Sequence record: OZ556245.1
Length of the DNA stretch: 64,000 nt
Reading direction: 5' to 3' (one strand)
Origin: a phage
The translations under genes and the position numbers were made by a program. How positions within the stretch are numbered: the first letter of the stretch is position 1; every line of letters starts with the position of its first letter. This document shows positions 26,967 through 33,292 of this stretch, piece by piece. The notes below the pieces were generated by a model. It had not been told where the DNA came from. It saw only the letters and a program-made list of their open reading frames with translations, and made no database searches.

Positions 26967-28082
26967 ATGGAAAAATTTATGGCAGAGTTTGGACAAGGAT
27001 ATGTCCAAACGCCATTTTTATCGGAAAGTAATTCAGTAAGATACAAAATAAGCATAGCGGGTTCTTGCCCGCTTTCTACAGCAGGACCATATGTTAAATT
27101 TCAGGATAACCCTGTCGGAAATCAAACATTTAGTGCAGGTCTTCATTTAAGAGTTTTTGACCCTTCAACAGGAGCATTAGTTGATAGTAAGTCATATGCT
27201 TTTTCTACTTCAAATAATACTACATCAGCTGCTTTTGTTAGTTTCATGAATTCTTTGTCAAACAATAGACTTGTTGCTATATTAACTAGCGGAAAGGTTA
27301 ATTTTCCTCCTGAAGTGGTATCTTGGTTAAGGGGAGCAGGAACTTCAGTTTTTCCATCAGATTCAGTATTGTCAAGATTTGACGTATCATATGCTGCTTT
27401 TTATACTTCTTCTAAAAGAGCTATTGCATTAGAGCATGTTAAACTAAGTAATAGAAAAAGCACAGATGATTATCAAACTATTTTAGATGTTGTATTTGAT
27501 AGTTTAGAAGACGTCGGAGCTACGGGATTTCCTAAAAGAACATATGAAAGTGTCGAGCAATTTATGTCAGCGGTTGGTGGAACTAATAACGAAATTGCGC
27601 GATTGCCAACTTCAGCTGCTATAAGTAAACTTTCTGACTATAATTTAATTCCTGGTGATGTTCTTTATCTTAAAGCACAGTTATATGCTGATGCTGATTT
27701 ACTTGATCTTGGAACTACAAACATATCCATTCGTTTTTATGATGCATCAAATGGTTATATTTCCTCTACCCAAGCTGAATTTACTGGGCAAGCTGGGTCT
27801 TGGGAATTAAAGGAAGATTATGTAGTTGTTCCTGAAAATGCAGTCGGATTTACTATATATGCGCAGAGAACTGCTCAAGCTGGTCAAGGCGGAATGAGGA
27901 ATTTAAGCTTTTCTGAAGTATCAAGAAATGGCGGCATTTCAAAACCTGCCGAATTTGGCGTCAACGGTATTCGCGTTAATTATGTCTGTGAATCGGCTTC
28001 ACCTCCAGATATAATGGTACTTCCTACACAAGCCTCTTCTAAAACTGGCAAAGTGTTTGGGCAAGAATTTAGAGAAGTTTAA
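26967..28082 (+). CDS. 35: gp35 long tail fibre hinge protein
   Basis: 371-aa ORF directly after gene 34. Confidence 0.88.
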   Translation: MEKFMAEFGQGYVQTPFLSESNSVRYKISIAGSCPLSTAGPYVKFQDNPVGNQTFSAGLHLRVFDPSTGALVDSKSYAFSTSNNTTSAAFVSFMNSLSNNRLVAILTSGKVNFPPEVVSWLRGAGTSVFPSDSVLSRFDVSYAAFYTSSKRAIALEHVKLSNRKSTDDYQTILDVVFDSLEDVGATGFPKRTYESVEQFMSAVGGTNNEIARLPTSAAISKLSDYNLIPGDVLYLKAQLYADADLLDLGTTNISIRFYDASNGYISSTQAEFTGQAGSWELKEDYVVVPENAVGFTIYAQRTAQAGQGGMRNLSFSEVSRNGGISKPAEFGVNGIRVNYVCESASPPDIMVLPTQASSKTGKVFGQEFREV

Positions 28083-28144: not shown

Positions 28145-28795
28145 ATGGCTGATTTAAAAGTAGGTTCAACTGTGGGTGGATCTGTCATTTGGCATCAAGG
28201 AAATTTTCCATTGAATTCAGCCGGTGACGATGTACTCTACAAATCATTTAAAATATATTCAGAATATAATAAACCGCAGGCAGCTGATAACGATTTCGTT
28301 TCTAAAGCTAATGGTGGTACTTACACCGGTCCAATTACTATTAATTATGGGGTAAATAGTTATCTTCAATTAAGTAATAATGAAACCCCTATCCGAATTC
28401 GTTCTGGTGGCGGCACCGGTAATACTCTTGTAATCGGTGGCTCTTCTGGTGGTATTAGTTTTAGACCTGCAGGTAGTGAAATCACTACTGGACAAATTAC
28501 TATTACGCCAGAAGGTTTGACAACATTCACCAAAGCTGTAAAGGCTCCATCTGTAACTGTTACATCTACTCCTTCCGCAGCATCAGATGCTACTCGTAAA
28601 GATTATGTTGATGGAGCAATAAATACTGTTACAGCAAATGCAAACTCTAGAGTGTTACGATCTGGTGACACCATGACAGGAAATTTAACTGCGCCAAACC
28701 TTTTTTCACAGAATCCTGCATCTCAACCTTCACACGTTCCACGATTTGACCAAATCGTAATTAAGGATTCTGTTCAAGATTTCGGCTATTATTAA
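28145..28795 (+). CDS. 36: gp36 long tail fibre distal connector
   Basis: 216-aa ORF with its own TATAAATA late promoter. Confidence 0.88.
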
Positions 28796-28803
28796 GAGGA
28801 CTT

Positions 28804-31788
28804 ATGGCTACTTTAAAACAAATACAATTTAAAAGAAGCAAAACCGCAGGTCAACTTCCTGCTGCTTCAGTATTAGCCGAAGGTGAATTGGCTATTAATT
28901 TAAAAGATAAAACAATTTTCACAAAAGATGACTCAGGCAATGTTATAGAATTAGGTTTAAAATATGGAGGAACAATTGATGGTTCTTTAACTGTTAATGG
29001 AAATATAATTGGAAATTTAACAGGTAACGCTGCAACTGCAACGAAATTAAAAACAGCACGAAAAATTAATGGTATATCCTTTGATGGGTCAAAAGATATC
29101 ACGCTAACTCCATCCGACATAAATGTCAATAGCACAACGTTTATAAAAAATAACGGCGAATTACCTGTTGATGCTAATTTAGATACGTATGGGCCTGTTG
29201 AAGAATATCTTGGAGTTTGGTCGAAAGCAACTTCAACCAACGCTCAACCAGCAAATAAATTTCCAGAAGACAATGCTGTAGGTGTGCTAGAAGTATTTGT
29301 GGCCGGTCAATTTGCTGGTACTCAGAGATATACAACTAGATACGGAAATGTTTATATTCGTTCCTTGACTGCTACATGGAACGGAGTAAATGGTCCGTGG
29401 AGTGTGTGGCGAAATATTCAATCCGGTACTCGTCCACTGTCAACAACAATTGATCTTAATGATCTAGGAGGCGCTGAACACCTTGGTTTGTGGCGAAATA
29501 GTTCAAATTCCATTGCTACATTTGACAGAAATTTCCCAGAAGAGGGGTCGTCAGCTCAAGGTCTTTTGGAAGTATATGAAGGTGGAAACTATTCTCGTAC
29601 ACAAAGATATACAACCAGATTTGGTGTTGTTTATACTCGTTGTCTTGCTGCCGCGTGGGATTCTACTGCGCCTAAATGGGGACCGTGGCAGCAAGTCGGT
29701 AATGTCACACCAGCGACTTTTTATGATGGAGATCTGAATGATTTTAAAACTCCTGGGTTATATAATATTTTAGGCACTGATGCCGTTATTAATTGTCCTA
29801 CAGGCGAAGGTTTACCAGCCGTTATTGTTGGTTTGCTGGAAGTTAAACAGCGTGCTTCTGGTGGTGCTATTTTCCAAAAATTTACTACTGCCGGAACAGG
29901 TGCAACTACCCGCGATCGTATTTTTGAGCGCGCATATACCGGCGGTGTGTGGGGTGAATGGAACGAAGTATACACATCTTATTCTCTACCAATTACTTTG
30001 GGTATGGGCGGTATTAAATCTAACTTAGCAGAGTTAGACTGGCAAACATTTGATTTTGTTCCTGGTAGTATGTTTAGCGTTCCTTTGAACAAAATAAAGA
30101 ACATGCCAGCTAATATGGATTGGGGTACGATTGACAGAAACTTAATTATGTTTTCTGTTGGTCCTAGCGAGCACACCAGCACAGGACGTACTGTTCAGGT
30201 TTGGCGTGGTACTGTATCCCAGACAAACTACCGTTATTTTGTCGTTCGTGTATTCGGTAATTCAGGAAATAGAACTTGCACAGTTCGTCGCGTTGTTCTT
30301 GAAGATGGTCGCCACAAATGGACAGCGCAACAAGATTTTAATGGCGCAGTTAACTTCGGTGCTCCTACCAATTTTAACTCTACTGTTAACCTTAATAACA
30401 CTACCACTTTTAAAACAGAAGTTAAATTTCGCTCATTGAATGCATTCCGTATGTATGGCGGAAAATTTGGTACAATTTTCCGTAATGATGGAGAGAGTCT
30501 TTATATTCTTTCCACCGACGAAGATGACCAAGATGGAAACTTTAATACAAATAGACCTTTCCGTTATGAATTGAGAACTGGTGATGTTACTTTAGGTGGT
30601 ACTAGTGGTGCTAACGTTTTAAAATTAAAACGTGATTCTCTCACCGCATTTTTTGGCGGTGATATTAACACGAAAGGCTTGCTGACTTTTGACGCCGGAC
30701 GTTTAGGATCACGAGATTATTTTAAATTTAACCATTGGGGTGATAGTAATAATGCGCGTGATAACATTATTCAGTTAGAAGACAGCAAAGGCGCTCATTT
30801 TTCCACTGAACGTACTTTAGCGACTGGTGCAATTAAGACTAAATTTTTTGGTGAAATTGAATCCGATGGTAAATTGGTTATTAAACGTCCGGGTGATTCT
30901 ATTGTATTATCAACAACTGCTAGTAATTCTTTGCATATTCGTGGTGACATAGACGGGACTGGTAACTGGTATATTGGTAAGGGTGGTGCTGATAATGGAT
31001 TAGCGTTATATAGTTATGCTACTAATGCTGGTGTATACATTACAAACGCAGGAGATATCACGCTAAGTCCAAAAGGCGTCGAAATGGCCCATGTCAATAA
31101 CGTTCGATTATATGTTCATGGTGAACGTTGGACTGCTAGTCAACCAGGTGATTGGAGTAGTCAGTGGCAAGTGGAAGCGCCAATATTCGTCGATCATGGT
31201 TATGTTTCACAGGATTGTTATTATCCAATTATTAAAGGAAGAAGTGTAATCACCAATCAAGGGTTTGTAACTGCCGTCGATCTTGGTATTCGTCGTGTCA
31301 ATAACAATTGGGGACAAGCAATTATTCGTGTTGGATCTGCGGAGGCATCGCCAGCGGCTGGACACCCTAACGCGGTATTTGAATTTCATTACGACGGTAC
31401 TTTCTATTCTCCTGGTAATGGTAACTTTAACGATGTGTATATTCGTTCCGATGGTCGTCTTAAGATTAATAAAAAAGAGCTAGAAAACGGAGCGATTGAA
31501 AAAGTTTGCCGACTGAAAGTTTATACTTACGATAAAGTTAAGTCTATTAAAGACCGTAGTGTTATTAAACATGAAGTTGGTATTATTGCGCAGGATCTTG
31601 AAAAGGAATTGCCGGAAGCTGTATCTAAAGTTGAAGTTGATGGATCTGATGTTCTGACAATTTCTAACTCTGCTGTGAATGCTCTTTTAATTAAGGCCAT
31701 TCAGGAAATGAGCGAAGAAATTAAAGAATTGAAAACACCTTTCTTCACTAAAATTGCTCGCAAAATTAGTAATTATTTTAAATTCTAA
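28804..31788 (+). CDS. 37: gp37 long tail fibre distal subunit with C-terminal self-cleaving chaperone-like domain
   Basis: 994-aa ORF starting [13 protein letters not shown]; C-terminal ~110 aa carries SDGRLK motif. Confidence 0.9.
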
Positions 31789-31820
31789 CAACAGGGGGCT
31801 TTGCCCCTTTGGAGAAAATT

Positions 31821-32603
31821 ATGGCAGTAGTTGGTGTTCCCGGTTGGATTGGTAGTTCATCCGTAAATGAAACAGGACAACGATGGATGAGTCAAGCGGC
31901 TGGTCAATTAAGATTGGGCATTCCTTGCTGGATGAGCCAATTTGCAGGTCGCTCAAGAGAAATTATTCACACGCTTGGAGCAGACCATAACTTCAATGGT
32001 CAATGGTTCCGAGATAGATGTTTTGAGGCAGGTAGTGCACCTATAGTGTTTAATATCACTGGAGATTTAGTATCATATTCTAAAGATGTTCCTTTATTCT
32101 TTATGTACGGAGATACACCGAATGAATATGTTCAGTTGAACATACATGGTGTAACGATGTATGGCCGTGGCGGGAATGGCGGTAGCAATAGTCCTGGCTC
32201 AGCTGGGGGTCATTGTATTCAAAATGATATTGGTGGGAGACTAAGAATTAATAATGGCGGAGCTATTGCTGGCGGCGGTGGCGGCGGTGGCGGCGGGTAT
32301 TATTCTCCTTTTTCACAAATGAGATTGACCTTTGGCGGTGGCGGCGGTCGTCCGTTTGGCGCACCGGGCGGATCTATTAATATGCAATCAGGAGCAACTG
32401 CTGGTACTATTTCTGCGCCAGGCGCAGGGTCTGTGAACGGTATCTACAACGGCGGGTCTGGTGGTGAAGTTGGCTCCGCAGGAGGTAGATGTAATATTCG
32501 TGGTCAAGGATATGAATACGATGGCGGAGCTGCTGGTTATGCCGTCATAGGGTCTACACCGACATGGCAAAACGTTGGAGCAATATATGGTCCAAGAGTA
32601 TAA
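31821..32603 (+). CDS. 38: gp38 tail fibre tip adhesin (T2-type, glycine-rich)
   Basis: ~260 aa from ATG at 31821 (GGAG 7 nt upstream); [14 protein letters not shown]-terminus; several poly-Gly motifs separating short variable segments. Confidence 0.85.
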
Positions 32604-32635: not shown

Positions 32636-33292
32636 ATGACAGCACCTAGAATATCATTTTCGCCCTCTGATATTCTGTTTGGTGTTCTAGATCGCTTGTT
32701 CAAAGATAATGCTACCGGGGAAGTTCTTGCTTCCAGGGTAGCTGTCGTAATTCTTTTGTTTATAATGGCGATTGTTTGGTATAGGGGAGATAGTTTCTTT
32801 GAGTACTATAAGCAATCAAAGTATGAAACATACAGTGAAATTATTGAAAAGGAAAGAAATGCACGCTTTGAATCTGTCGCCCTGGAACAACTCCAGATAG
32901 TTCATATATCATCTGAGGCAGACTTTAGTGCGGTGTATTCTTTCCGCCCTAAAAACTTAAACTATTTTGTTGATATTATAGCATACGAAGGAAAACTACC
33001 TTCAACAATAAGTGAAAAATCACTTGGAGGATATCCTGTTGATAAAACTATGGATGAATATGCAGTTCATTTAAATGGACGTCATTATTATTCAAACTCA
33101 AAATTTGCTTTTTTACCAACTAAAAAGCCTACTCCCGAAATAAATTACATGTACAGTTGTCCATATTTTAATTTGGATAATATCTATGCTGGAACAATAA
33201 CCATGTACTGGTATAGAAATGATCATATAAGTAATGACCGCCTTGAATCAATATGTGCTCAGGCGGCCAGAATATTAGGAAGGGCTAAATAA
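32636..33292 (+). CDS. t: holin T
   Basis: 218-aa ORF, single TM helix (VAVVILLFIMAIVWY) and large periplasmic domain; strong AAGGAGGG Shine-Dalgarno. Confidence 0.93.
   Translation: MTAPRISFSPSDILFGVLDRLFKDNATGEVLASRVAVVILLFIMAIVWYRGDSFFEYYKQSKYETYSEIIEKERNARFESVALEQLQIVHISSEADFSAVYSFRPKNLNYFVDIIAYEGKLPSTISEKSLGGYPVDKTMDEYAVHLNGRHYYSNSKFAFLPTKKPTPEINYMYSCPYFNLDNIYAGTITMYWYRNDHISNDRLESICAQAARILGRAK

Follow-up and report, generated by a model that had tools for sequence, protein, structure and literature searches.

The gp37 precursor of a T-even-type long tail fibre ends in a Peptidase_S74-type chaperone domain, predicted to be released so that gp38 can cap the fibre

The long tail fibre protein gp37 is a trimeric fibre, as established and restated in PMC3157838. 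For T2 and T6, the account given by Trojet et al. 2011, in the passage citing Drexler et al. 1986, is that the gp37 C-terminus is cleaved and that gp38 then caps the fibre (PMC3157838). In Salmonella phage S16, the last 113 residues of gp37 are autocleaved and removal of this intramolecular chaperone (IMC) exposes the docking face for gp38 (PMC7917993), where three Trp at the tips of the gp38 N-terminal helices fit into pockets in the gp37 trimer base (PMC6851490). In the T5 fibre protein pb1, the bond cut is Thr1263-Ser1264; the S1264A exchange blocks autoproteolysis, and K1269 is placed to activate the Ser (PMC4690869). Salem et al. 2021 (PMC7917993) gave the sites as DLNVS^SDRRIKK in S16 and DVYIR^SDGRLKI in the Yersinia fPS phages, and predicted chaperone release and Gp38 docking in the latter. 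A gp37 with a self-cleaving chaperone, capped by gp38, is already known from T2, T6, S16 and their close relatives.

We analyzed a window of 64,000 nucleotides from a phage (sequence record OZ556245.1, one strand, 5' to 3'); all coordinates given below for gp37, gp38, their parts and the spacer between their genes refer to the plus strand. The ORF list and Pfam matches identify a long-tail-fibre distal cluster of the T-even phage type, in which gp35 (26967-28082) and gp36 (28145-28795) are followed by gene 37 (28804..31788), encoding a long tail fibre distal subunit precursor of 994 residues with a calculated mass of 109.1 kDa. Gene 38 and the t holin gene (32636-33292) come next, resulting in the order g36-g37-g38-t holin. 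At the DNA level, positions 28804-32603 share 96.4% identity with Escherichia phage L14; the corresponding values for T6 and for Yersinia phage fPS-65 are 89.3% and 88.4%. In T6, gp37 is likewise 994 residues long. Judged by these comparisons, the phage is T6-like. In the spacer between the g37 stop codon and the g38 ribosome-binding site lies a GC-rich hairpin, GGGGC-TTT-GCCCC (31795..31807), and the fPS-65 record has a terminator annotated in this region. As a terminator candidate the hairpin was rejected: only three T's follow the stem, and the surrounding 66 nt fold no differently from shuffled sequences (z -0.85).

The first base of codon 882 of gene 37 is 31447 and the TAA stop occupies 31786-31788, so that the interval 31447-31788 contains residues 882-994 (113 amino acids) and the stop. 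An earlier note on this DNA, drawn up without database searches, had proposed that the C-terminal ~110 residues form an S74-like chaperone domain and had named a profile search as the check. We ran this search against 24,736 models: the C-terminal fragment of gp37 matches PF13884 (Peptidase_S74, “chaperone of endosialidase”) with an E-value of 3.7e-12 and 46.8 bits, above the gathering cutoff of 22 bits, and whole gp37 matches it with an E-value of 9.6e-11. The Pfam core spans residues 882-940 (31447..31623) and covers profile positions 1-57 of 58, at the beginning of a domain that extends to the extreme C-terminus of the 994-residue protein (882-994; 31447..31785). PF13884 is found at the same place in gp37 of T6 (882-940) and T2 (1243-1300), and the Pfam search found no S74 domain in T4 gp37. 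With the 113-residue domain as query, tblastn returned matches in 1344 phage records, the matched proteins including T5-like L-shaped tail fibres, Streptococcus PblB proteins and annotated peptidase_S74 genes. Sequence searches of the PDB with the fragment reached the S16 gp37 construct 6f45_A (E 1.2e-5, and 2.1e-8 with a 16-sequence profile), 8jov_1 (a putative tail fibre) and, weakly, MyRF 7dc3_A; neither the fragment nor the 16-sequence profile reached 3gw6 or 4uw8 in these sequence-only searches.

The domain starts with SDGRLK, directly after NDVYIR. The sequence quoted in the earlier note is present as written, and its S-D-x-R-x-K signature occurs once in gp37, against an expectation of ~0.01 from composition. 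Profile position 1 falls on Ser882, with which the domain opens and which is the predicted nucleophile; the predicted scissile bond is Arg881-Ser882 (31444..31449), and Lys887 (31462..31464) is the predicted general base of a Ser/Lys pair. In an L-INS-i alignment, Ser882 and Lys887 share columns with S1264 and K1269 of T5 pb1 and with S911 and K916 of the K1F endosialidase, whose numbering was verified on the T5 and K1F genomes. A search of a large protein collection yielded 19 short, closely related fragments only. The site is covered by 13 homologues; every one of them has both Ser and Lys, and in each S-D-x-R-L-K is preceded by NDVYIR. Upstream of NDVYIR, the sequence is unrelated between homologue subgroups. 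This combination of a conserved site and diverged upstream sequence suggests that DVYIR and the chaperone form a cassette that may move as a unit. Residues 882-994 of gp37 are therefore a Peptidase_S74/IMC domain, an assignment on which four independent lines (family model, catalytic residues, conservation and distribution) agree.

The autocleavage site given for the fPS phages is identical to the gp37 sequence found here. At P1, this gp37 shares Arg with T2 and T6, whereas S16 has Ser and both T5 and K1F have Thr. Taking the cut position from the S16 alignment and from the published fPS prediction (PMC7917993), mature gp37 would comprise residues 1-881 (28804..31446), have a mass of 96.3 kDa and end in the DVYIR strand, on which the docking face for gp38 would be formed. 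Cleavage and release in this phage are thus predicted by analogy with the characterized relatives. VYIRS recurs at residues 183-187, but this copy was discarded as a candidate second cleavage site: the residue at +5 is Trp, not Lys, and no S74 match was found there. Counterparts of the T5 folding-sensor residues, R1250 contributed by a neighbouring chain and D1239, were not located, the gp37 sequence upstream of the site being unalignable to T5 and K1F.

Structure prediction adds to the family assignment in a limited way. An AF2 monomer of the 135-residue C-terminal fragment, computed from a shallow 16-sequence alignment, has low confidence (mean pLDDT 48, pTM 0.38), which is unsurprising because the domain forms an intertwined trimer. 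Solved IMC domains combine a mixed alpha/beta region with a C-terminal helix that builds a trimeric coiled coil. When this low-confidence model was searched with Foldseek against 350,542 PDB chains, the best 12 matches were all IMC domains, with TM-scores of only 0.30-0.36. These 12 places were taken by 7dc3 (the MyRF ICA domain, E 3e-5), 3gud (GA-1 neck fibre gp12, titled “a novel intramolecular chaperon”), 3gw6 (K1F tail spike, titled “Intramolecular Chaperone”) and 4uw8 (T5 pb1 with its chaperone). We read this ranking as suggestive corroboration that lies in the specificity of the order, not as a reliable superposition. The model further places a long alpha-helix at residues ~955-973 (31666..31722; positions 96-114 of the fragment, low pLDDT), which lines up with the helices at the C-termini of T5 and K1F and, by analogy with the T5 structure (PMC4690869), is likely the trimeric coiled-coil core of the chaperone. 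Beyond it, the protein ends in a basic, amphipathic tail of 17 residues (978-994; 31735..31785) that was found only in T6-type IMC domains: it is present here, in T6 and in two homologues (P0001 and P0002), and absent from T2, S16, T5, K1F and the other homologues. This tail is the sole feature we noticed beyond published descriptions.

The partner protein is encoded immediately downstream of g37. Gene 38 (31821..32603) specifies a T2/T6-type tail fibre adhesin of 260 residues, with Pfam matches to GP38 (E 4.8e-71) and Gp38_N (E 4e-20), PDB matches to 9v85_A (gp38 of PP01, 4.1e-80) and 6f45_D (gp38 of S16, 1.8e-49), and 93% identity to gp38 of T6. ATG 31821, which follows GGAG at 31811-31814, is more plausibly its start codon than the TTG at 31809 given in the ORF list. 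The protein combines an N-terminal attachment domain (31821..31946, the Gp38_N match) with glycine-rich motifs. Trp9, Trp22 and Trp37 of the attachment domain are invariant between this phage, T2 and T6, and the terminal strand of mature gp37 reads (D/N)VYIR in the same three; the attachment domain probably inserts into the tip of gp37 once this is exposed, as described for S16 (PMC6851490, PMC7917993). The type of the downstream gene supports the interpretation, already put forward in the earlier note, that the receptor-binding tip is supplied by gp38. That note had also pointed out the lack of a T4-type HxH-rich tip, and the counts bear this out: not a single HxH occurs across the whole of gp37, which contains only 12 His, compared with seven in residues 883-998 of T4 gp37.

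We consider it highly probable (~0.93) that gp37 is synthesized as a precursor of 994 residues carrying a self-cleaving IMC (882-994), which is removed so that gp38 caps the fibre. The roles in folding, autoproteolysis and docking that this reading assigns are modelled on T5, K1F, S16, T2 and T6. Three chaperone domains would associate first, via their C-terminal helical core, and the chaperone trimer would set the folding register for the upstream trimeric beta-helical fibre. After correct trimer folding, Ser882, activated by Lys887, would attack the Arg881-Ser882 bond in each chain, resulting in release of the 12.8-kDa chaperone and in a 96.3-kDa mature gp37 that ends in NDVYIR. To the blunt trimeric tip exposed in this way, a single gp38 molecule would dock with its N-terminal domain and the three Trp in it, with the receptor-binding loops presumably carried on the glycine-rich C-terminal domain of gp38.

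Other readings of the same C-terminus were weighed against this model. The domain could be a genuine IMC homologue in which a different protease, of host or phage origin, makes the cut in place of the domain's own Ser/Lys pair. Such a view would fit the passage on T2 and T6 in PMC3157838, which speaks of proteolytic processing only and leaves the protease unnamed, and it could draw on the Arg at P1, unlike the Ser or Thr of structurally characterised members. However, exactly the catalytic positions are occupied by Ser and Lys without variation, the Ser-to-Ala exchange in T5 abolishes cleavage upon expression in E. coli (PMC4690869), and autocleavage is described for the S16 homologue (PMC7917993), which makes a separate protease very unlikely. 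To a similarly small degree we credit the idea that the chaperone stays with the virion, as part of uncleaved gp37 or still bound after cleavage, with gp38 attaching elsewhere. The extra 17-residue tail of the T6-type domain could be cited for retention, but gp37 of T2 and T6 is reported as cleaved and then capped in that same passage of PMC3157838, the docking face for gp38 in S16 is exposed by removal of the domain (PMC7917993), and the present phage has kept both the attachment domain of gp38 and the three Trp in it.

That motif and profile match arose by chance, and that the C-terminus is merely fibre shaft, has nothing in its favour except the low confidence of the monomer model. A chance resemblance is refuted by an E-value of 3.7e-12 in a search of 24,736 models, with a score that exceeds the curated cutoff, by the 1344 phage records matched with tblastn, annotated peptidase_S74, L-shaped tail fibre and PblB proteins among them, and by the family-specific fold ranking. 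Two further ideas concern the tail and the P1 residue: the 17-residue tail might serve a function of its own, for instance recruitment of gp57A or gp38 or membrane association during fibre assembly, or cleavage chemistry might be altered by Arg at P1. We regard a departure of this kind as improbable.

The processing of gp37 described here is not a discovery, because the same site has been published in near-identical proteins (PMC7917993, PMC3157838); rather, the earlier note correctly re-derived a published feature from the sequence alone, and the current understanding of T-even fibres is unchanged. For practical purposes, the element to be annotated as receptor-binding is gp38 and not the C-terminus of gp37, and gp37 in virions is predicted to run at ~96 kDa, not 109 kDa. 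In host-range engineering, the point of exchange would be either the gp38 adhesin or the cassette of DVYIR plus chaperone.

Among the known systems, T4 has its gp37 gene at the same position of the fibre locus and shares a Gp34_trimer-like shaft module with the present protein. The T4 tip, in contrast, consists of a Collar domain followed by an iron-binding needle rich in HxH, with eight HxH in total and Pfam matches to Collar and Phage_fiber, neither of which was found by Pfam search in gp37 of this phage, and T4 gp38, the chaperone with which the T4 tip folds, is an assembly factor, not an adhesin, and unrelated to the gp38 described here. The IMC domains of the K1F endosialidase (3GW6), the GA-1 neck appendage (3GUD) and T5 pb1 (4UW8), classified as MEROPS S74, belong to the same Pfam family as the domain of this gp37, with which they share Ser-x4-Lys at the domain start and a G-[IL]-x-A-Q motif. 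The upstream client domains of K1F, GA-1 and T5 are unrelated to gp37, and the T5 and K1F domains contain an insertion of 40-45 residues (the beta-hairpin “tentacle”), which gp37-type domains do not have.

Further systems compared are fibres that end in a gp38 adhesin. The S16 gp37-gp38 tip (PDB 6F45) is homologous across the cleavage site and the IMC, which also comprises 113 residues in S16 (PMC7917993), and the gp38 adhesins are homologous as well; S16 differs in having Ser at P1 (DLNVS^SDRRIK) in place of Arg, and upstream of the five final mature residues the two gp37 sequences are unrelated. In T2, gp37 likewise carries a C-terminal PF13884 domain (E 3.3e-15) after NVYIR and then SDIRLK, whereas the protein as a whole is 1341 residues long, its IMC has 99 residues and lacks the 17-residue tail, and its gp38 aligns with the one studied here over the first 145 residues only, at 51% identity. 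With T6, the length of gp37, the gene order g36-g37-g38-t and the DVYIR plus SDxRLK site are all the same, the IMC domains are 94.7% identical, and gp38 differs by few substitutions. The differences between T6 and the present phage are allelic only, with shaft identity at 72-76% around residues ~200-300 and ~800-900.

Comparison of gp37, the distal long-tail-fibre protein (window 28804-31788), with its T6 counterpart (L002) yields 88-100% identity in most 50-aa bins, with drops to 72-76% at residues ~200-300 and ~800-900. In the same binned comparison, the chaperone domain displays 96-100% identity. At the level of sequence, gp37 is mosaic with respect to T6, the N-terminus and the chaperone domain staying conserved.

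Three tandem modules of ~95 aa each were observed in the N-terminal half of gp37 (residues ~121-400, window 29164-30003), which have the pattern G(L/V)LEV...TQRYTTR(Y/F)G.VY.R...W...W in common. Modules 1 and 2 are 41% identical (BLASTP, E 2e-19) and module 3 was identified by eye only. Further along, a Gp34_trimer module (PF21446, E 9.5e-12) is located in the gp37 shaft at residues 521-587 (window 30364-30564). Solved structures of the T4 gp34 C-terminal region (5nxf, 5nxh, and 4uxe; E ~1e-8 to 1e-9) are matched as well, so a module is common to the proximal and distal fibre subunits. The hinge protein gp35 harbors a Pfam match of its own at residues 58-112 (window 27138-27302), namely to PF15711 ILEI, an interleukin-like EMT inducer or FAM3-type domain (E 5.4e-8, 33.7 bits vs a cutoff of 27).

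The pentapeptide VYIRS is encoded twice in gp37 by a 17-nt direct repeat identical at 16 of 17 positions (ATGT[T/G]TATATTCGTTCC; window 29348-29364 and 31433-31449), yielding copies at residues 183-187 and 878-882, the latter at the predicted cleavage site. Both copies are likewise present in T6, whereas T2 contains the C-terminal one only. We considered residues 183-187 as a second cleavage site and rejected this candidate, since the +5 residue is Trp instead of Lys and no S74 match was found at this copy. The repeat itself may be a chance match or a microhomology.

At the g37-g38 junction, a GC-rich hairpin (GGGGC-TTT-GCCCC, within window 31794-31814) is positioned 6 nt 3' of the g37 stop codon and immediately 5' of the g38 GGAG. 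A terminator is annotated in the matching region of the record of Yersinia phage fPS-65. Just three T's lie 3' of the stem, and an unusual local fold was not found at the hairpin when tested against shuffles (z -0.85). The mechanical ORF list places the gp38 start at a TTG at 31809 (264 aa). An alternative start, the ATG at 31821, is located 6 nt 3' of GGAG and yields an N-terminus in agreement with those annotated for T2 and T6 gp38 (260 aa).

In the chaperone domain of gp37, the predicted helical core is followed by a basic, amphipathic C-terminal tail of 17 aa (residues 978-994, window 31735-31785). A tail of this type is confined to the T6-type sequences, comprising the window, T6, and the homologues P0001 and P0002, whereas the chaperone domains of T2, S16, T5, and K1F are devoid of it.
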